In this document: piece by piece, positions 342 through 34,076 of the stretch
Numbering within the stretch: position 1 is the stretch's first letter
Layout: the number at the start of each line of letters is the position of its first letter
Assembly (NCBI GenBank): GCA_016198325.1
Contig: JACQIV010000014.1
Span: 1 to 39,001 of the forward strand
Source of the DNA: Candidatus Curtissbacteria bacterium
GTDB lineage: Bacteria; Patescibacteriota; Microgenomatia; Curtissbacterales; GWA2-41-24
DNA length: 39,001 nucleotides
Direction of reading: 5' to 3'
Program-made: the position numbers and the translations under genes
The notes under the pieces: model-generated
What the model saw: the letters and a program-made list of their open reading frames with translations, nothing else
Database searches by the model: none
What the model was told of the DNA's origin: nothing

Positions 342-1967
342 ATGGCTAAACAATTACTTTACGCAGCAGAAGCAAGAACAAAATTAAAAGCAGGTATCGA
401 CAAGCTTGCCAATGCCGTCGCAACTACTCTAGGCCCTAAAGGCAGAAATGTCGCTTTAGATAAGAAATGGGGAGCCCCCAATGTAATCCACGACGGGGTA
501 ACCGTTGCTAAAGAAATCGAACTCGAAGATCCGTTTGAAAATATGGGCGCATCCCTCGTAAAAGAAGCGGCAAGTAAAACCAATGATGTAGCAGGAGACG
601 GAACAACCACAGCAACCATCCTTGCTCAGGCAATGGTCGAAGAAGGCATTAAAAACATAACAGCAGGTGCAAACCCGATGATACTTAAAAAAGGTGTCGA
701 AAAAGCAACAGAAGCTGTTGTTGCCGAACTTAAGAAAATGGCCAAAAAAGTTGCAGGTCAGGAAGAAATCGAACAAATAGCCACTATTTCGGCAGCAGAT
801 CCGTCAATCGGTAAAATGATAGCAGAAGCGCTAGATAAAGTCGGTCCGGATGGGGTTGTCACGGTCGAAGAAGGCAAAGGCTTAGAGCTTTCCGTCGAAT
901 ATAAAGACGGCATGGAATTCGACAGAGGATTTGTTTCCCCCTATTTCGTAACCGACTCCGACAAAATGCAATCGGTTATAGAGGACGCGCACATACTTAT
1001 TACTGATCAAAAAATTGCTTCACTTAATGATTTACTTCAATTCCTGGAAAACTTCGTTAAAGTCTCCAAATCCTTAGTCATCATTGCCGACGAGGTCGAA
1101 GGAGAAGCTCTGGCAACCCTGGTTGTTAACAAACTACGCGGTACATTCAACGTTTTGGCAATCAAAGCCCCCGGTTTCGGTGACCGAAGAAAAGAAATGC
1201 TCGAAGATATTGCAATTTTAACGGGTGGAACAGTTATCTCCGAAGACATGGGAAGAAAACTGGAATCCGTAACTATCGACGACCTGGGCAGGGCAGACAG
1301 GATAGTCTCCGACAAAGACAATTCCATTATTGTCGGCGGTAAAGGTGCAAAAAGTGCAATCGAAGGCCGTATTAAACAGATCAAAACCCAAATCGAGACA
1401 ACGGATAGCGATTTCGATAAGGAAAAATTGGAAGAAAGGCTCGCCAAACTTTCCGGCGGAGTAGCGGTAATCAACGTCGGGGCGGCAACGGAGATCGAAC
1501 TCAAGGAAAAGAAAGAAAGGGTAGACGATGCGGTACACGCCACAAAAGCAGCAGTTGAAGAAGGATACGTTGTCGGCGGCGGAGTCGCACTGCTCAGATC
1601 TGCAAAAGTACTGGAAAAACTTGCTTTAATTGGAGAATCGGATGAGCGGATCGGTGTCGAAATTGTCAAAGAATCACTTAAAAAACCTCTCGCCAAACTT
1701 GCAGAAAATGCCGGTGCGGATTCCGGTTGGGTTGTGAAGGAAGTCGAAAAAAGCACAGGCAACTCCGGCTTCAATGCTCTGAGCGGAAAATTTGAGGATC
1801 TGGTAGTAGCCGGTGTAATTGACCCGGTTAAAGTAACTAGGTCCGCGCTTCAGAACGCAGCATCCGTTGCCATGATGATATTAACAACCGAAGCGTTAAT
1901 TACGGATCTCCCCGAAAAAGAAAAAGCTATGCCGGCAATGCCCCCGGGCGGCATGGGTGATTATTAA
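342..1967 (+). CDS. groEL: Chaperonin GroEL
   Basis: [26 protein letters not shown]-like, [13 protein letters not shown] tail; 541 aa. Confidence 0.99.
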
Positions 1968-18606: not shown

Positions 18607-18855
18607 ATGGACATAGCATCGGAAACCGTTTGCATCCGCTGTGGTAAAAAAAGAATTTTCCTGAAAAAATGGTCCGAAAAAGCGGACGGAAAAGGAAAGC
18701 TCCTCACTTACACACAGACGATTTGCCCGGATAAAAAATGCCAGGAAATTGTAGACGCAAAGTTTACGGAAATGCGCGAACGCAGGGAAATGTCCGAAGA
18801 AAAAAGAAAACATAATTTAATTAATAGAAAGTTAAAACATCAAACAACAAAATGA
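18607..18855 (+). CDS. Small Cys4 zinc-ribbon-like protein with charged helical tail
   Basis: CIRC...CPDKKC; ATGA overlap with the helicase. Confidence 0.75.
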   Translation: MDIASETVCIRCGKKRIFLKKWSEKADGKGKLLTYTQTICPDKKCQEIVDAKFTEMRERREMSEEKRKHNLINRKLKHQTTK

Positions 18856-20033
18856 AAAGAAGTTTTTCGCCTCACTCATTCAAAAATAAATACCGCGGCT
18901 TAAGGCAATCGCGTCGCAGCCCAGCATCTTATAAAACGCACTCGGAAAAGTACATAAATAAGAATGTAGAAGTACAAACCGAAGAAAAGTACCGAAACAC
19001 CCACATTTTTTCCGATTTCGACATCGCAAGTATTCTCAAAGAAAACATCACAGCGCGTGGATACAAAATTCCGACGCCGATCCAGGATAAATCAATCCCA
19101 ATAATTCTCGAAGGGCACGATTTAATCGGAATAGCAAACACCGGCACTGGTAAAACCGCTGCTTTTCTTGTGCCTTTAATTAATAAGGTTCTTAATAAAC
19201 GAGACGAAAAAGTTTTAATTATTGTTCCAACCCGTGAGCTGGCTATGCAGATAGACGAAGAATTAAAGGCATTTGCAAGATCAACGGGTATTTTTTCCCA
19301 GGTCTGTATAGGTGGTGCCAATATTAATGCTCAGATTTCGGGGCTTTCCGGAAATCCCGGTTTTGTAATAGCGACACCGGGCAGGCTCAAGGATCTTATA
19401 AATAGGGGACTAGTTAATGCACTAACCTTCTCAAGTGTCGTTCTGGACGAAGTAGATAGAATGCTGGATATCGGTTTCATAAGGGATATCCGGTTTATAA
19501 TTTCGCACCTTCCCGAAGTTCGCCAATCACTCTTTTTCTCGGCAACAATCGACCGCGATGCAAATACCATTGTCCAGACTTTTCTTAAGGATCCGGTTAC
19601 GGTTTCCACAAAAGTTGGTCAAACGGCAGCGGGTGTCGAGCAGGACATTATCAAGGTAAATAGCAATTGGGAGAAATTTGAAAAACTATATTTCATGTTA
19701 AAGCAAAAAGAATTCTCAAAAGTGCTGATTTTCGGCCGCACAAAACGTGGCGTGGAAGGTTTGTCCCGGAGTCTTCGGAAAGAAGGTTTTTCTGCTGATT
19801 CAATCCATAGCAACAAATCACAAAGCCAGCGAATTAGGGCCCTTTCGCAGTTCAAAGGTGACCGCCTGCAAGTACTAGTTGCTACAGATATAGCAGCTCG
19901 TGGACTGGATATAGAAGCAGTATCGCACGTAATTAATTACGACGAACCATCGACCTACAACGATTACATCCACAGAATAGGCAGGACCGGCAGGGCAAAC
20001 AGGCAGGGCAAAGCCCTAACCTTCGTAATGTAA
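18852..20033 (+). CDS. DEAD-box RNA helicase (RhlE-like, DEVD variant)
   Basis: PTPIQ, TGTGKT, PTRELA, TPGRL, LDEVD, SAT, ARGLDI, HRIGRTGR. Confidence 0.96.
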   Translation: MKRSFSPHSFKNKYRGLRQSRRSPASYKTHSEKYINKNVEVQTEEKYRNTHIFSDFDIASILKENITARGYKIPTPIQDKSIPIILEGHDLIGIANTGTGKTAAFLVPLINKVLNKRDEKVLIIVPTRELAMQIDEELKAFARSTGIFSQVCIGGANINAQISGLSGNPGFVIATPGRLKDLINRGLVNALTFSSVVLDEVDRMLDIGFIRDIRFIISHLPEVRQSLFFSATIDRDANTIVQTFLKDPVTVSTKVGQTAAGVEQDIIKVNSNWEKFEKLYFMLKQKEFSKVLIFGRTKRGVEGLSRSLRKEGFSADSIHSNKSQSQRIRALSQFKGDRLQVLVATDIAARGLDIEAVSHVINYDEPSTYNDYIHRIGRTGRANRQGKALTFVM

Positions 20034-20064
20034 GTTTTCTCGAACGTGGGCATTTAACCTCACT

Positions 20065-20168
20065 TTATTCCGAGCGAGAAAACCCCGGCATTCATACCGG
20101 GGATGAGAGTGAATCTCGCGAAGCGAAGGATCAAAATACCACGGCCTTCAGGCCGTGCGTAGTTTATT
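20065..20168 (-). mobile_element. 104-bp miniature palindromic element, copy 1 (IS200/IS605 PATE-like)
   Basis: Identical to 22779-22882; two subterminal hairpins; TTATT at both ends. Confidence 0.85.
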
Positions 20169-20224
20169 GTTTTCAAGAATAAATATTCCTTTGAGGGATG
20201 ATGGGTAAAGAACAGAACTAACCA

Positions 20225-20252
20225 TTGCCAATTCCTGTAAATATTGTAGAAT
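20225..20252 (+). promoter_or_regulatory. Sigma70-type promoter
   Basis: TTGCCA-16 nt-TAGAAT, 9 nt before GTG at 20262. Confidence 0.5.
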
Positions 20253-20261
20253 TGTTTCTAA

Positions 20262-20495
20262 GTGAAAAACCTCGAAAAATTTGGCATTGACAGGAATTTC
20301 CTAATATCTGGTGCTATTGCGCTTGTTGCGGTTGCCGTTATACTCGTAATCTTTAAAGATTCAACTACCCGTTTCACTTTTGTAATGCCAGTCTTTGCCG
20401 GCTTTATTTTTTACAATATTCTGACTTCAAAGGATTTAGACAAAGAGGATGACGCAGAAGAAAAGAGTAAATCCGCTGCTAAAGGAAAAAAATAA
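20262..20495 (+). CDS. Small 2-TM hypothetical protein
   Basis: Two hydrophobic segments, charged tail, promoter upstream. Confidence 0.7.
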   Translation: MKNLEKFGIDRNFLISGAIALVAVAVILVIFKDSTTRFTFVMPVFAGFIFYNILTSKDLDKEDDAEEKSKSAAKGKK

Positions 20496-21584
20496 TTAAT
20501 AGGCGTAAGAAAGCTGTCTTCGCCAATCCTCAAAGCGTTTGACCAAGTCAATATTTTCCACCGGATACGGTTCGATCCCCAAACCGCTGAATCCGTAATT
20601 TAATAGCGCAGCCGCCGCGATTTCCCTATCTTCTATCGAATTTGCTCCCACAACAATTGCCATCAGGTTTTTGCCCTCACGGCTTGCTGTAACAATTGTA
20701 GCGTGGCCCGCTTCTTCCGTATAACCGATTTTTAACCCGTCTACACCGGGATATGTCCCCAGAAGTGCATTCCAGTTTGGCAGGTCAAATAATTTATGGT
20801 TTGCGTTGGCATCAAGCCGCAAATATTCGGAAGCAGCAATCTTTGCAATTAAAGGATAATTTGTTTTCGCGTCATTGGCAATTATCGCAAGATCGTAAAC
20901 GGTCGAATAGTGGTTGACAGAATCCAGACCGGTTGCCGTCTCAAGACGGGTGTTTGCGGCACCGATCTTCTTCAGTTTTTCGTTTACTAGTTGCATGAAA
21001 GTAGTGGTTCCGGATCCTGCTCGTTTTCCCAAATCATCGGCAATTACCTCTGTCGCGTCGTTTGCTGAAGTTAATATCGCTCCGGCGATCGCTTCACTAA
21101 GTGTTAATCTCTCCTTTTCTCTAAGTCCAAGCTTGGTTGGTATCTGCTCACTGGCATTTTTGGATACCACCAATAATTCATTTTCGGAAGCCAAATCAAG
21201 GGCAGTGATAACTGTTGCCAGCTTGGAAAGCGAAGCAGGTGCAATTTTTTCATTGAGATTGCTGGACCAAAGGACTTTGCCGGAATCTTCGTCAATTACA
21301 GCACCCGCACGGATTTGGGGTAAATTTTCAACATTTTCACTGCTTCCCGCGCCTTGCGGCTGCCAATAATCATTCCCGGTGAGCTTCTTTTTAGCATCAA
21401 AAAACGCCTCCCTCTTGTTTATTGGAACCGGTGAAAGGATAGAATTATCCTGGCTGTTTATCTGCCTGAAAACCGCAAAAGAAAGAACAAAAGCCAAAGC
21501 TATAAAAACAAGCCTCTTTTCAAAATTTAAAAAAATACTACCCTCAAATTTAAAGTTCTGCCGCATTTTAGTGAGTCTTAGCAT
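20496..21584 (-). CDS. D-alanyl-D-alanine carboxypeptidase (peptidase S11)
   Basis: PASLSK (SxxK), SANDA (SxN), GLKIGYT (KTG variant). Confidence 0.9.
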   Translation of the reverse strand: MLRLTKMRQNFKFEGSIFLNFEKRLVFIALAFVLSFAVFRQINSQDNSILSPVPINKREAFFDAKKKLTGNDYWQPQGAGSSENVENLPQIRAGAVIDEDSGKVLWSSNLNEKIAPASLSKLATVITALDLASENELLVVSKNASEQIPTKLGLREKERLTLSEAIAGAILTSANDATEVIADDLGKRAGSGTTTFMQLVNEKLKKIGAANTRLETATGLDSVNHYSTVYDLAIIANDAKTNYPLIAKIAASEYLRLDANANHKLFDLPNWNALLGTYPGVDGLKIGYTEEAGHATIVTASREGKNLMAIVVGANSIEDREIAAAALLNYGFSGLGIEPYPVENIDLVKRFEDWRRQLSYAY

Positions 21585-22902
21585 CTGCGAGGTTTATCCT
21601 GTTTTCTCCCGGAAATTTTTCAGAAAGAGTTTCCCAAAAGCTTTTTTCCCCTTCATCAAATCCCAACGCCCATATTCCGACACCCGCCAGGTTTTTCTCC
21701 TTGGCAAAATCGTACTTTAGGGAAAGCGATTTTTTATCTTCCATATAAACAACATGCCAGCCAGTCTCGTCCCAATAACCACGCCAAGAAACTTTTGCAT
21801 CATCGTCCCAGCCCCCGAGTGGAGTAGTCATCAGAAGTTGGTTACTATTAACTTTTTCCTGGGTTGTTGCAAAAGAACTTCCCCATGACCGGTCAGCCTT
21901 AGGTTGCGGGTCAACGGAAGGGTAATTCCAGCCGTAATAAGGAACTCCCATGATGATTTTGTCGGCAGGTGCTACCTTAAGAAAATCGTCTACCGCCGTC
22001 GAAACGTCGTACCAAAAAGGTCCCTTGCCGTTGTTATACCCGTAAAACGGCGCGCTCGGTCCGATTTTTTCCGAACCCGGATAGTAAAAGTCATAAGCCA
22101 TCATAAAAATCCCGTCAGTGTGTTTTGCCAAAAACCCAAGATCATAAATTTTGTTATCTTTTGCAGAAGATGCGATTACGGAAACGGTAATATAAGGATT
22201 TTGTTTTGTCTCTGCCTCCACTCTTTCCGAAAAGTAAGCAATAAATTTGGAAAAGCGGCTTCTTAAATAATCATCGGAAGGCATGAATTCAAAATCGATA
22301 TTGACCCCGTCCAGCTCGCGGTTATTCAAGATTGCAATCGTCTCCGCTGTCGTATTTTCCCAGGCTTCTTCGTCGTATAAAAATAACCTAATATCGTAAG
22401 GCTCCATCTGAGTGAGCGTTACTACCCTGCGAACATCATGTGACTTGGCTTTTTCAAATAAATTGGCGAGCTTCGGGCTTTCAAAAACTCCCCATTCATA
22501 AGAAGTCCTATCAATAGAACCGTCAGCAAAAACCGGCAGGGAAAAATAGGCAAACGTAGTTAAAGTATCCCAATCAACATTGTCCATTTTGGAAAGCGTC
22601 CAGTAAGGAGCGAAACCAAATACTTCCTGTTTTGGCACGGCAGAAGCAGCAACCGGCGGTAAAAATTTAGCGATAAACGATGGTCTTGAAACAACTACAA
22701 AACCTAAAAAAAAGATCCCGCAAACTAGGATCACAGAGGTCAAAAGCCAAGTGTATTTTCTCCGTAAGTTTTTCCGGATTATTCCGAGCGAGAAAACCCC
22801 GGCATTCATACCGGGGATGAGAGTGAATCTCGCGAAGCGAAGGATCAAAATACCACGGCCTTCAGGCCGTGCGTAGTTTATTTCTGGCAGGGAAGGTAAC
22901 AT
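21568..22902 (-). CDS. GH18 glycoside hydrolase, membrane anchored, with 33-aa in-frame element insertion
   Basis: LDGVNIDFE catalytic motif, MAYD, MGVPYYG, LAGVGIWALG. Confidence 0.9.
   Translation of the reverse strand: MLPSLPEINYARPEGRGILILRFARFTLIPGMNAGVFSLGIIRKNLRRKYTWLLTSVILVCGIFFLGFVVVSRPSFIAKFLPPVAASAVPKQEVFGFAPYWTLSKMDNVDWDTLTTFAYFSLPVFADGSIDRTSYEWGVFESPKLANLFEKAKSHDVRRVVTLTQMEPYDIRLFLYDEEAWENTTAETIAILNNRELDGVNIDFEFMPSDDYLRSRFSKFIAYFSERVEAETKQNPYITVSVIASSAKDNKIYDLGFLAKHTDGIFMMAYDFYYPGSEKIGPSAPFYGYNNGKGPFWYDVSTAVDDFLKVAPADKIIMGVPYYGWNYPSVDPQPKADRSWGSSFATTQEKVNSNQLLMTTPLGGWDDDAKVSWRGYWDETGWHVVYMEDKKSLSLKYDFAKEKNLAGVGIWALGFDEGEKSFWETLSEKFPGENRINLADAKTH
22779..22882 (-). mobile_element. 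104-bp miniature palindromic element, copy 2, in frame within GH18
   Basis: Identical to 20065-20168; removing 99 bp gives MLPSLPEIIRKNLRRKY. Confidence 0.88.
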
Positions 22903-22938
22903 TAGGTAAAATTTCTTTCCGCAACTAAAGGAATCAAA

Positions 22939-22967
22939 AGGGTAGCAAGTGAAAATTACAGTGTCAA
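22939..22967 (-). promoter_or_regulatory. Sigma70-type promoter for GH18 and the carboxypeptidase
   Basis: Minus strand TTGACA-17 nt-TACCCT with TG extension. Confidence 0.55.
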
Positions 22968-22994
22968 GTCGAGGTTTGGAAGAAAAACAATAAT

Positions 22995-23017
22995 TTATAC
23001 CTTTTCCGTCACTCTAT
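22995..23017 (-). pseudogene. Recoded remnant of the GT2 3' end
   Basis: AGA GTG ACG GAA AAG GTA TAA (RVTEKV*) versus the gene's AGA GTA ACT GAG AAA GTT TAG. Confidence 0.8.
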
Positions 23018-23043
23018 TCGCAGAAAGAGTGACTTCCATAAAT

Positions 23044-24537
23044 CTAAACTTTCTCAGTTACTCTATACTCCAAATATTTTCCAAGCATCAGCCTTGTATG
23101 CGCGTCGATTCCCGGTAAAGCGGTAAACAGGAAAGTAATAACAGGCATCAAAATATACTCAAATGGGGTCAGGACTTTTTTAACGAAAGTTGCATGTTCG
23201 CTTCTTTTTGGCCTCTGTCTCCAGTCAATAACAATGATAACTGCCAAAAATATCCAGCAGGTGGTCAAAATCCCAAAAGATACCCTTGGCAAATTCTGGC
23301 CCATCACCGTTTGGGCAAAAGCTGGGTTCAGAAGTGTCGGGATAGTTGCCCCAAGAGTTATCGCAAACCAGTTAACCGGCCAAAGAAAATGGTCCTCGAT
23401 TACTTTAAAAACCCGGATTGTCCTTCTCCAGAAAGGAATATGCGTGTGTGTCAGCCACTTTTTAATAATGTAAGCATCGTCCGAAACTCCCCAGGCCCAA
23501 CGTCTTTCCTGCTCATAAAAATTAATTAAGGATTTAATATACGTTGTCGATTCAGCTGCATCCGCATTGGCCGGTAAAAACACCGGGTCAACATCGACTA
23601 AACCGTCTTTTGCGAAAAAACTTTTGAAGAAAATCCGGTAATCTTCCGGAATTACATCGACATCCCAGTAACCGACCTCATGAAGGAGCTTCATGGAAAG
23701 TGAATACATCGAATAATTTACAAGTCTGTCAGTCCTCGAATTTTGTGCTGTCTGCCAAACAGAGCCGAGTGAATTCATAACTCTAATTGGCGCGGGTACT
23801 TTCCAAATATTTGTGTAAAAAAGAATTATAGGCTGCCAAAATAGCAGATACCTTTTTTCTCCCTTGGAAAGAAATTTAAAGGTCAAGCATGAAAGATATT
23901 TTTCGTGAAGCTGCCCGTCGGCATCTTTGGAGGTAACCGTCATAAAGTTGATATCCAGCTTCTTTTTATCTATCAAAAACTTTTTTGCAATTTTTCCGGC
24001 ATATGCCTCATTGGAAGATTTACCTTTTACTTCATGGGCAATGTCGGGATGAAACGTAAAAAAAAGATTGCCGAAATGTTGGCCGTATTTTTTTCTGATC
24101 GCTGCGGCTTTGTCTCTGGCGTCTTTTCCTTCGCGTGCTTCAAAAGCGACACAAATAGAAATTCTCTTTTTTGGAAAATCTTGCCGAACTAGTGAATCAA
24201 GCCCCCGTTCCAGAACATGAAGCGGTTCCTTATAAGTCGGAATCAGGACTAAATGATGAACCTTAACAAAATCCTTAAGTTTTTTTGCATCTGCAAGCCA
24301 GTCATATTTTTGGGCAGCATTTAACTTCAGATGGGAAAGTATAGCCGAAAAAGCCATAATGGCACTTTTATAGAACCAGAAAATAATAAAGAAGATAATG
24401 TAATAAGCAACGTAATGGGGAACCCAGAAAGAACCCCAAACCGGGAAGAGAATCAAAGTCCACGAAAAAGTCCCTGGTAATATTTCCAGGAACCTGTGTA
24501 TTATCGGATCATGTTTTTCAACAAACCTTCGCATCAT
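23044..24537 (-). CDS. Processive-type GT2 membrane glycosyltransferase
   Basis: IPTYKE, GKSSN, DAD, IPED, QERRWAWG (QxxRW), flanking TM helices. Confidence 0.9.
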   Translation of the reverse strand: MMRRFVEKHDPIIHRFLEILPGTFSWTLILFPVWGSFWVPHYVAYYIIFFIIFWFYKSAIMAFSAILSHLKLNAAQKYDWLADAKKLKDFVKVHHLVLIPTYKEPLHVLERGLDSLVRQDFPKKRISICVAFEAREGKDARDKAAAIRKKYGQHFGNLFFTFHPDIAHEVKGKSSNEAYAGKIAKKFLIDKKKLDINFMTVTSKDADGQLHEKYLSCLTFKFLSKGEKRYLLFWQPIILFYTNIWKVPAPIRVMNSLGSVWQTAQNSRTDRLVNYSMYSLSMKLLHEVGYWDVDVIPEDYRIFFKSFFAKDGLVDVDPVFLPANADAAESTTYIKSLINFYEQERRWAWGVSDDAYIIKKWLTHTHIPFWRRTIRVFKVIEDHFLWPVNWFAITLGATIPTLLNPAFAQTVMGQNLPRVSFGILTTCWIFLAVIIVIDWRQRPKRSEHATFVKKVLTPFEYILMPVITFLFTALPGIDAHTRLMLGKYLEYRVTEKV

Positions 24538-33428: not shown

Positions 33429-34076
33429 TCAATCAATAATGAGATTGTCTATTTTTTTCAATCCCCCCGCATAATCAGCATGATCGTGTATGAATTTTTT
33501 ATATTCAGTCCTAGAAGGGAAAAAATCAGTAATAACAGTAGTTTCGCAAAAAGTTTCGTCAGACTTGAAAATAAAATCTTTATAAGATGACCATTGGTAT
33601 GAATCCAGGTCTTCAGTTAAACCAGCTACATATGGGTTCAAATGAATATATCTTGTTATATGAATCAGTTGTTCGTCATTCTTTATTCTTACAGCCTTAA
33701 AAGGTCCCTGCATTAAGCTTCCCGACCTTACATATTTTTTATTGAAGTATTCTGTATAAGCATTGGTGATCTGTTTCAAAAACTTAGAAATACCGCTCTT
33801 AGTTGTTTGTTTTAAAAGGAGATGAAAGTGGTTTGGCATCAGGCAATAACTAACCAAAGCAGCTTCCTTTGAAAGATTTTTATTATGAAGCCTTATTGGT
33901 AGACGCGGATATTTAGTAAGAACTCTTTCTAAGGGATAAAGATATATAAACAAATAGTAGATAAAAATTTTGTAATCCTTTTCGTCTAGAAAAATCTTTC
34001 TTTTTTCGACGCCTCTATTGAATACATGATAATAGGCATTTTCCTCATACTCTCGAACGACGTATTTAGAAGGCAT
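33429..34076 (-). CDS. REP-associated tyrosine transposase (RAYT, Y1 HUH)
   Basis: YYHVFNRG, YCLMPNHFH (HUH), YFNKKY.R.G.L, RYIHLNP (catalytic Tyr), YQWSSY. Confidence 0.93.
   Translation of the reverse strand: MPSKYVVREYEENAYYHVFNRGVEKRKIFLDEKDYKIFIYYLFIYLYPLERVLTKYPRLPIRLHNKNLSKEAALVSYCLMPNHFHLLLKQTTKSGISKFLKQITNAYTEYFNKKYVRSGSLMQGPFKAVRIKNDEQLIHITRYIHLNPYVAGLTEDLDSYQWSSYKDFIFKSDETFCETTVITDFFPSRTEYKKFIHDHADYAGGLKKIDNLIID

Follow-up and report, generated by a model that had tools for sequence, protein, structure and literature searches.

In Rickettsia, the palindromic elements (RPEs) of Ogata et al. (2000) measure about 150 bp, and a review that covers them gives 44 integrations in R. conorii, nearly half of them in open reading frames (ORFs) as translational fusions, and raises the possibility of similar processes in other prokaryotes (PMC10969869). 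Here we describe a comparable case in a Candidatus Curtissbacteria bacterium (Patescibacteriota, Microgenomatia), in a window of 39,001 nucleotides, by which we mean the whole stretch of contig JACQIV010000014.1 (assembly GCA_016198325.1) that was analysed. A gene on the minus strand of the window (21568..22902), encoding a glycoside hydrolase family 18 (GH18) protein, carries a 99-nt segment close to its start. Taking the evidence as a whole, we consider it likely that this segment is a copy of a repeat family that entered the GH18 coding sequence (CDS) in frame and is tolerated there as RPEs are in Rickettsia.

The element occupies 22779..22882 on the minus strand, where it separates codons 8 and 9 of the ancestral GH18 CDS without a change of frame. 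It is a 104-nt unit bounded by AATAA at each end, 99 nt net when one AATAA is counted, and scores 113.7 bits with the covariance model R1 introduced below. Read on the minus strand, its layout is AATAA-ACTACG-(CACGGCC TGAA GGCCGTG)-GTATTTTGATCCTTCGCTTCGCGAGATTCACTCTCAT-(CCCCGGTA TGAA TGCCGGGG)-TTTTCTCGCTCGG-AATAA, where the parentheses enclose hairpin 1 (22854..22871), followed by GTATTTT, and hairpin 2 (22797..22816), followed by TTTTCTCGC. Both stems are perfect or near perfect, the expected number of chance matches in the window is 0 to 0.01 per hairpin motif, and the RNA fold of the element region has a z of -3.7 against shuffles. The host ORF, 444 aa long with the insert, consists of an N-terminal tail, a membrane helix and a GH18 barrel (Glyco_hydro_18, PF00704, E 2.8e-31). 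In the GH18 frame the element is free of stop codons and encodes 33 aa, NYARPEGRGILILRFARFTLIPGMNAGVFSLGI; the remaining two frames of the same orientation are closed, by TGA in one and by TAA in the other. Excision of the 99 nt restores MLPSLPEIIRKNLRRKY ahead of the hydrophobic helix. The earlier note on this DNA had proposed a stop-free insertion of 99 bp net (104 bp with both ends) that adds 33 aa and whose precise removal gives back the N-terminus before the membrane helix; the sequence, the ORF and a second copy of the element bear this out.

This second copy lies 2.6 kb away (20065..20168, minus strand), in intergenic DNA 32 nt past a DEAD-box helicase gene (18852..20033, plus strand) and 94 nt ahead of a small ORF (20262..20495, plus strand). 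It is identical to the first at 104 of 104 positions, and in an alignment of the flanks the identity starts and stops at the AATAA pentamers. Two identical copies in one genome point to recent copying. The source genome (549,505 bases in 29 contigs, 83% complete) also holds decayed relatives, namely a tandem pair on one contig (C27) and the left half of a copy of the second subfamily on another (C10). In public contigs of four groundwater runs, the exact 104-nt unitig is present at 2.4-3.5 times the depth of the flank unitigs, and several contigs exit the element ends into other sequence, which together indicate that more copies exist than were assembled. Unitigs from both flanks of the gene extend 30 nt into the element in all four runs, three of which may be the source sample and are thus not independent confirmation of the assembly. 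Variant copies occur in contigs of runs X1-X3 (A>G at 20096, G>T at 20100 and C>G at 22846), so that slightly different element copies are present in the community. A composite transposon delimited by the two copies was considered and rejected, because the intervening 2.6 kb is ordinary chromosome in which an S11 peptidase gene adjoins GH18, as it does at 10 of 10 relatives' loci.

Comparison with orthologues shows what the gene looks like without the element. Six orthologues in related genomes share 57-60% identity with the window protein (alignment A4), and the closest metagenomic relatives 77%, 67%, 62% and 57%; all of them align to it only from about residue 39-59 onward. In a nine-sequence alignment the window protein alone contains a clean 37-column block, residues 8-44 being gapped in all eight others. 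The orthologue N-termini include MESSLPE, MQSPLPE, MDLNLPE and MDSNLPD; the reading frames of the orthologues open with MESSLPEADRSKLP, MQSPLPEPYRYKLP, (V)DLNLPEDLRRNKF, MDSNLPDPLRRIF, MPTVLSDPLRRKF, MDSSLSEDHHSKL, MSLSDEDHRRRR and MQGLSLFRRRLF, in each case directly followed by the conserved ...G(I/V)FFLG helix. Since all eight aligned orthologues lack the insert and several have similar starts, the element entered an existing CDS, and the MLPSLPE N-terminus is, judging by these sequences, ancestral. The earlier note had made its reading depend on orthologues with an MLPSLPEI-like beginning, and M-x-S/P-x-LPE-like starts free of the insert are what the orthologues have. The frame of the ancestral ATG (22900..22902, minus strand), supported by the orthologue N-termini, is kept through the element. 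Upstream of it lies the motif TTGACA-N17-TACCCT (22939..22967, minus strand), common to the orthologous loci of two relatives (G019 and G017) and presumed to be a promoter, which a consensus promoter scan did not call. Gene order around GH18 is conserved as GT2-like, GH18 and S11 peptidase, the GT2-like gene being seen at 7 of 10 relatives' loci within the fetched span. When residues 1-60 were used as a query for the insert peptide elsewhere, they matched the window's own protein alone (proteins of 244-777 aa).

An alignment of 23 full-length copies separates into two subfamilies, and the covariance model R1 was built from it. Subfamily A, to which the window copies belong, starts with AATAAACTAC and subfamily B with AATAGATTCC; both end in ...TCGCTC(A/G)GAATAA. 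The two halves of the element resemble each other, each being composed of a hairpin, a T-rich run and a tail of the TCGCTC-R-GAAT type, and the modules are direct repeats. Some copies have one module only (L023, L024/L103 and a short copy in L077). The last of these (L077, G001:C7; 3728-3828) appears to be a one-module copy in frame near the start of a 599-codon ORF (NNRFPRSFGRGSLIFAQNK). Others (L075, L082, L095, L101, L105 and more) reach 129-147 nt through an extra 30-45 nt in the loop of hairpin 2, which may be either an extended stem or a nested insert; in-frame read-through is retained in L075 and L082. Pairing is intact in 86.9% of cells across both stems, and both sides have changed in 10 of 15 pairs, values reached by none of 500 shuffles; a slid partner gives 24-41% pairing. 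Helix 1 is 93% paired over the 23 copies, with three pairs changed on both sides, and helix 2 has compensatory changes in seven of eight pairs. An all-against-all search of column covariation for guide/cleavage-site pairing gave mostly subfamily-linked signals; its sole contiguous extra, a 3-4-bp TTCC/GGAA pairing (39-41 with 93-95), is not relied on.

When 61 genomes were searched at the DNA level, 22 of them matched, including the window's own; by relationship these were 20 of 31 genomes of the same family, 1 of 1 from a second family of the order and 0 of 28 from other families. With R1 (E up to 1e-3), the family was detected in 26 of the 34 genomes of the order, at 1-15 matches each. In an even sample of the class it was found in 19 of 151 genomes, 14 of the 143 outside the window's family; these outside matches include a closed genome with six copies, and variants that keep the layout with other loop and stem sequences. 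A search with the hairpin-1 pattern gave 11 contig matches, seven from Candidatus Curtissbacteria, three from Saccharimonadales (one metagenome-assembled genome) and one from an uncultured gammaproteobacterium (a 2.7-kb contig). These results show that the repeats, which are small, non-autonomous and about 100 nt long, form a family whose members start with (A)ATA(A/G) and end with GAATAA. They occupy unrelated sites in most of the order's genomes, with a patchy presence in the rest of the class.

The ends were compared over 65 copies scoring above 50 bits, the 63 best matches in relatives (down to 53 bits, with 2 kb on each side) plus the two of the window. On the 5' side they read (A)AATA plus one further base, A for subfamily A and G for subfamily B; in the window copy this pentamer, target or terminal, is AATAA (22878..22882, minus strand). 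On the 3' side (22779..22783, minus strand, in the window copy) the last bases are G/A-A-A-T-A-A, with AAT in 65 of 65 copies and a final A in 57 or G in 8, and the next base is A in 52. Nearly all copies thus carry AATAR on their 5' side and finish in AATAA. In subfamily B the 5' G is constant and the 3' side stays AATAA, which makes a plain 5-bp duplication unlikely; a 4-bp duplication of AATA would fit these ends, as would insertion 3' of AATAR by an element that itself ends in AATAA. The ends ACTACGCACGG and CTCGCTCGG are non-complementary, and no terminal inverted repeats (TIRs) were found, the two internal hairpins being the sole inverted repeats.

The same 65 copies were used for a census of insertion contexts, taking stop-to-stop frames from the first in-frame ATG, GTG or TTG and requiring at least 60 codons on one side of the element. 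A long ORF with an upstream start reads through 21 of the 65 copies in frame. Ten of these insertions are internal (L059, L060, L066, L075, L081, L090, L093, L094, L100 and L107), nine are N-terminal, 2-21 codons past the start (the window GH18, L054, L063, L077, L082, L083, L085, L088 and L091), and two are C-terminal, 12-20 codons ahead of the stop (L086 and L087). Thirteen copies are co-oriented with the gene and eight antisense, in at least four reading phases. Searched against Pfam, 15 of the 21 host ORFs score above the curated cut-off, one (L088) scores below it and five are without a match. The positions of the inserts can be seen in recognisable proteins: in L060 the insert (256-289) falls between DUF4147 (20-244) and MOFRL (346-447), in L107, a DnaX, it lies in the linker from domain III to the C-terminal domain, and in L093 and L059 the PMT_2 and PNPOx_N matches pick up directly past the insert, at profile positions 45 and 23. 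Filled and empty sites can also be paired, the filled L093 reading ...LLAKE[LF...NLF]SEKVAKIAAF and its empty homologue L063 ...LLAKELFGSKTAKLAAF, and the homologues L094 and L090 each being empty at the other's insertion site. The earlier note had suggested a small protein-modifying repeat analogous to the Rickettsia elements, to be judged by counting insertions over the genome and its relatives, and the 21 in-frame genic copies beside 44 others agree with it.

Among these 44, 29 overlap no ORF of at least 100 aa by more than 15 nt and 15 overlap one partly; in five of the 15 an ORF of at least 170 aa terminates within the element and takes its final residues and stop codon from it. At least six copies have their start exactly on a host stop codon, which is the TAA or TAG of the terminal pentamer. 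Such a shared stop, in the 5' or 3' pentamer, was noted at L053, L069, L096, L102, L103 and L070, and gene ends are often where the AATAR target motif falls; L053 and L069, each preceded by a 668-codon ORF, may represent a single inherited insertion. No clear frame-breaking split of a gene in the order was found among the census copies, although ORF rules are a poor test for such splits. On average, 1.85 of a copy's six frames are stop-free; in mononucleotide shuffles the figure is 0.98. No stop interrupts the GH18-type forward frame in 38 of 65 copies, compared with 21% in shuffles, and 21 of the 44 non-genic copies share this open frame; in subfamily B the frame reads about (N)RFPRPxGRGSLIFAQNSLHxR...FFAQNK, and the antisense frame reads LF...NLF, with LF from TTATT(C/T).

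In the GH18 gene, one copy inserted at an AATAA (codons E-I-I) behind codon 8 and left the reading frame intact; this position is part of the short cytoplasmic tail that precedes the membrane anchor. We infer that GH18 is still translated from the ancestral ATG with a tail 33 residues longer, which would be tolerated because neither the membrane helix nor the GH18 barrel contains the insert. An AlphaFold (AF2) model from the shallow nine-sequence alignment (mean predicted local distance difference test score, pLDDT, 68.7) places residues 1-47 below a pLDDT of 50 and shows no secondary structure there, has a long helix spanning 41-72 and starts the barrel at residue 93. The membrane helix itself, TWLLTSVILVCGIFFLGFVVV (residues 51-71; 22690..22752, minus strand), follows the basic stretch RKNLRRKY. 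In this model the insert would lengthen the tail ahead of that stretch and the anchor, outside the folded enzyme, which fits tolerance. The element as such would be selfish DNA; because its consensus is stop-free in several frames, in-frame copies in loops, linkers and termini could survive in small, gene-dense genomes. As a separate observation, the GH18 catalytic motif DGVNIDFE (residues 199-205; region 22294..22299) is present in eight of the nine aligned sequences, the other having EGVNIDFE; classical chitinases have D at the middle position where DGVNIDFE has N.

Other explanations of the segment were weighed against an in-frame insertion of a repeat copy. That there was no insertion at all, the 33 codons being ancestral and lost elsewhere or an assembly artefact, we regard as scarcely credible: contigs and not raw reads were examined, three of the four runs being possibly the assembly's own source, but an identical copy sits in non-coding DNA 2.6 kb away, 25 other genomes of the order hold the family at unrelated sites, the eight orthologues are without the element, and unitigs from both flanks run 30 nt into it in every run. 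A more serious alternative accepts the insertion and moves the protein start into or past the element, for instance to the internal in-frame ATG (22807..22809, minus strand; MNAGV...) that gives MNAGVFSLGIIRKNLRRKY...; the segment would then be mostly 5' leader, the first 31 codons would not be made and MLPSLPEINYARPEGR would not be part of the product. From this ATG it is 18 codons to the basic stretch that precedes the membrane helix, the tails of orthologues measure only about 12-17 residues, and the stable hairpin 33 nt past the upstream ATG could hinder elongation. Yet the upstream ATG, its context (GGAAAGAAATTTTACCTAATG vs GGGAAGAAAACCTAATG in G019) and TTGACA-N17-TACCCT have all been kept, no stop closes the frame that the old ATG sets, the internal ATG falls in the hairpin-2 loop region and has no purine-rich stretch ahead, and nine further family copies just past a start codon are read through, so that we hold an internal start to be rather unlikely. 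Less probable still is that the family is chiefly an RNA-level module, a terminator or an mRNA-stabilising pair of 3' hairpins, whose genic copies are by-products of its spread in the genome. Both hairpins, with GC-rich stem and T-run, match a terminator-like pattern in the sense strand, the stems are kept by compensatory changes, and at least six copies start at a stop codon; single-strand DNA recognition, however, predicts the same stem conservation, 21 of the 65 copies are inside ORFs, eight of them antisense, and an Rfam search over 19900..23100 (E up to 10) gave three chance-level matches, none of them on the element.

The remaining alternative concerns origin. Palindrome-associated transposable elements (PATEs), which derive from IS200/IS605 insertion sequences (IS) and depend on a Y1 HUH mechanism, have subterminal hairpins, no TIRs, and conserved sequence at the 5' flank and the 3' end. 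The GH18 element might likewise be a miniature built from IS200/IS605 ends, moved as single-stranded DNA by a Y1 enzyme that cleaves 3' of AATAR without target duplication. Its subterminal hairpins, lack of TIRs and strand-asymmetric layout, with one pentamer 5' of hairpin 1 and the other 3' of hairpin 2, favour this, as does the 5' AATAG against 3' AATAA of subfamily B, which runs counter to a simple 5-bp duplication. Of the order's 34 genomes, 27 carry Y1_Tnp genes; in the whole set, 23 have both the element and Y1, three the element alone, four Y1 alone and four neither, a weak co-occurrence signal confounded by kinship and completeness. The source genome has four genes of this kind (Y1_Tnp, PF01797), similar to the transposases associated with repetitive extragenic palindromes (REPs), or RAYTs. 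They are 207-224 codons long and show HUH-type motifs; one lies in the window (33429..34076, minus strand) and the others are on contigs C28, C6 and C18. Each, however, is bracketed on both sides by a private palindrome (TTAGGGGTTTAACCCCTAA for the window gene), none of which resembles the element hairpins. A hidden Markov model (HMM) of the four proteins found no match among the six-frame ORFs of 101 loci (L009-L109), which for the most part surround copies from the order, out to 1.5-2 kb; among loci L159-L180 it found a single gene (L176), near a copy outside the order, with unrelated flanking palindromes. That gene (G168:C71, about 990-1780, reverse strand) is flanked by AAGAATCATTCTT-type palindromes and is broken after ...YYHLYNRGVNE by a different two-hairpin insert with a +1 frameshift. 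Two Y1 genes in relatives, 1.2-1.4 kb from a weak element match, likewise have flanks unrelated to the element, no TnpB zinc-ribbon match was found in the 83%-complete genome, no full-length partner was found, and the 5' pentamer is only 6 nt from hairpin 1. The DNA between paired copies (L058, L096, L102 and L077) was inspected for a transposase, which was ruled out; it consists of ordinary genes. The derivation from IS200/IS605 ends that the earlier note proposed is thus doubtful, as no element-like end flanks any Y1 or TnpB gene. Since the anatomy is hairpin-based, asymmetric and TIR-less, a hairpin-recognising single-strand enzyme of the HUH/Y1 type, acting in trans with insertion at AATAR, is our best guess for what might mobilise the element, and a tentative one.

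Several points weigh against an in-frame insertion that is tolerated. At strain level the metagenome scan (38 loci) gave no empty GH18 allele, which would read ...CCAGAAATAA directly joined to TCCGG...; its closest locus is 77% identical and none carries the insert. The empty site that the earlier note proposed to look for was seen in the eight aligned orthologues and not at strain level. None of the contigs of the four groundwater runs joins across the GH18 copy; one 2730-nt joint there is uninformative, linking the two identical copies via a variant contig. The census covers the best 65 copies, with about 60 weaker R1 matches in the order outside it, and it follows ORF rules and not gene calls, the doubtful L050, L052, L095, L101 and L108 being excluded from the 21. 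Among copies from other families of the class, 0 of 20 inspected are read through by long ORFs, and the counts of open frames describe a family consensus, not independent events, because the copies share ancestry. The negative searches around the element for RAYT-like genes, for matching Y1 flanks and for TnpB belong here as well. In GH18, the first 130 nt of the CDS include both terminator-like hairpins in the sense direction, where they could lower expression, and the element contains an in-frame ATG; GH18 may therefore be expressed at a reduced level or from a shifted start.

With these points considered, insertion of a repeat copy into the GH18 CDS, with the frame preserved, is still the reading that we prefer. 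A wider proposal, which we put forward as speculative, is that Microgenomatia carry a lineage-wide, coding-compatible, two-hairpin selfish family that would be targeted to AATAR, moved in trans by resident Y1 enzymes, and would supply tails, linkers and loops to envelope enzymes (GH18 and many PMT_2-type glycosyltransferases). Because the AATAR motif includes a TAA stop and the frames are stop-free, such an element could come to rest exactly at the end of a gene or, in frame, within one. Selfish repeats in frame are textbook knowledge for Rickettsia, and genomes of the candidate phyla radiation (CPR) are similarly small and gene-dense. The family is well suited to study, having clear boundaries, strong stem covariation, many pairs of empty and filled sites, and copies in recognisable enzymes. 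For annotation, it means that extra segments of 30-45 residues in CPR proteins may be repeat-derived and not lineage-specific domains; for protein evolution, the family shows where insertions are tolerated, and it raises the question of how a repeat without an adjacent transposase moves. Among the papers listed in a literature search of partial coverage, none linked CPR, Patescibacteria or Curtissbacteria with RPE, REP, RAYT, miniature transposable elements with inverted repeats (MITEs) or in-frame repeats.

Set beside known systems, the element shares with PATEs the subterminal hairpins, the lack of TIRs, the conserved short 5' flank and 3' end, and the presence of Y1 genes in the genome; it differs from them in that no parent IS (tnpA/tnpB) with matching ends was found and the spacing of the left pentamer to its hairpin is short. 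The absence of TIRs also separates it from MITEs of the TIR type, which are moved by a DDE transposase. It resembles the REP and REPIN repeats associated with RAYTs (PMC3337134, PMC3733652) in being a GC-rich hairpin repeat in a genome with RAYT-like genes, each set in a private palindrome; unlike them, it is about 100 nt long with direct and not inverted hairpins, a third of its copies are intragenic, the copies of the order have no GTAG/CGTC tag, GTAG occurring only at the 3' end of distant variants, and no copy brackets a RAYT gene. With terminator-like small mobile elements such as SPRITE of Streptococcus pneumoniae, a name given in PMC10969869, it has in common dispersed modules of hairpin and T-run, often just past genes, whereas, in contrast to such terminator-like elements, many of its copies are inside ORFs and antisense. 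Like RPEs, as the review presents them (PMC10969869), it is a short (about 100-150 bp), hairpin-forming, non-autonomous repeat of a small, gene-dense genome, with no known transposase and with many of its copies sitting in frame within unrelated genes, where they read as an extra peptide; it is unlike RPEs in belonging to a different phylum, in having two directly repeated hairpin modules instead of one long palindrome, in its conserved AATAR/AATAA ends, and in genic copies that lie in both orientations and at least four reading phases. As far as our searches reach, it thus appears to be a family so far undescribed for CPR, of distinct architecture and tolerated in frame in Microgenomatia. It may be called RPE-like in kind, as a multi-copy repeat inserted in frame into ORFs, a likeness of behaviour and not one drawn from sequence comparison with RPE-1 to RPE-10.

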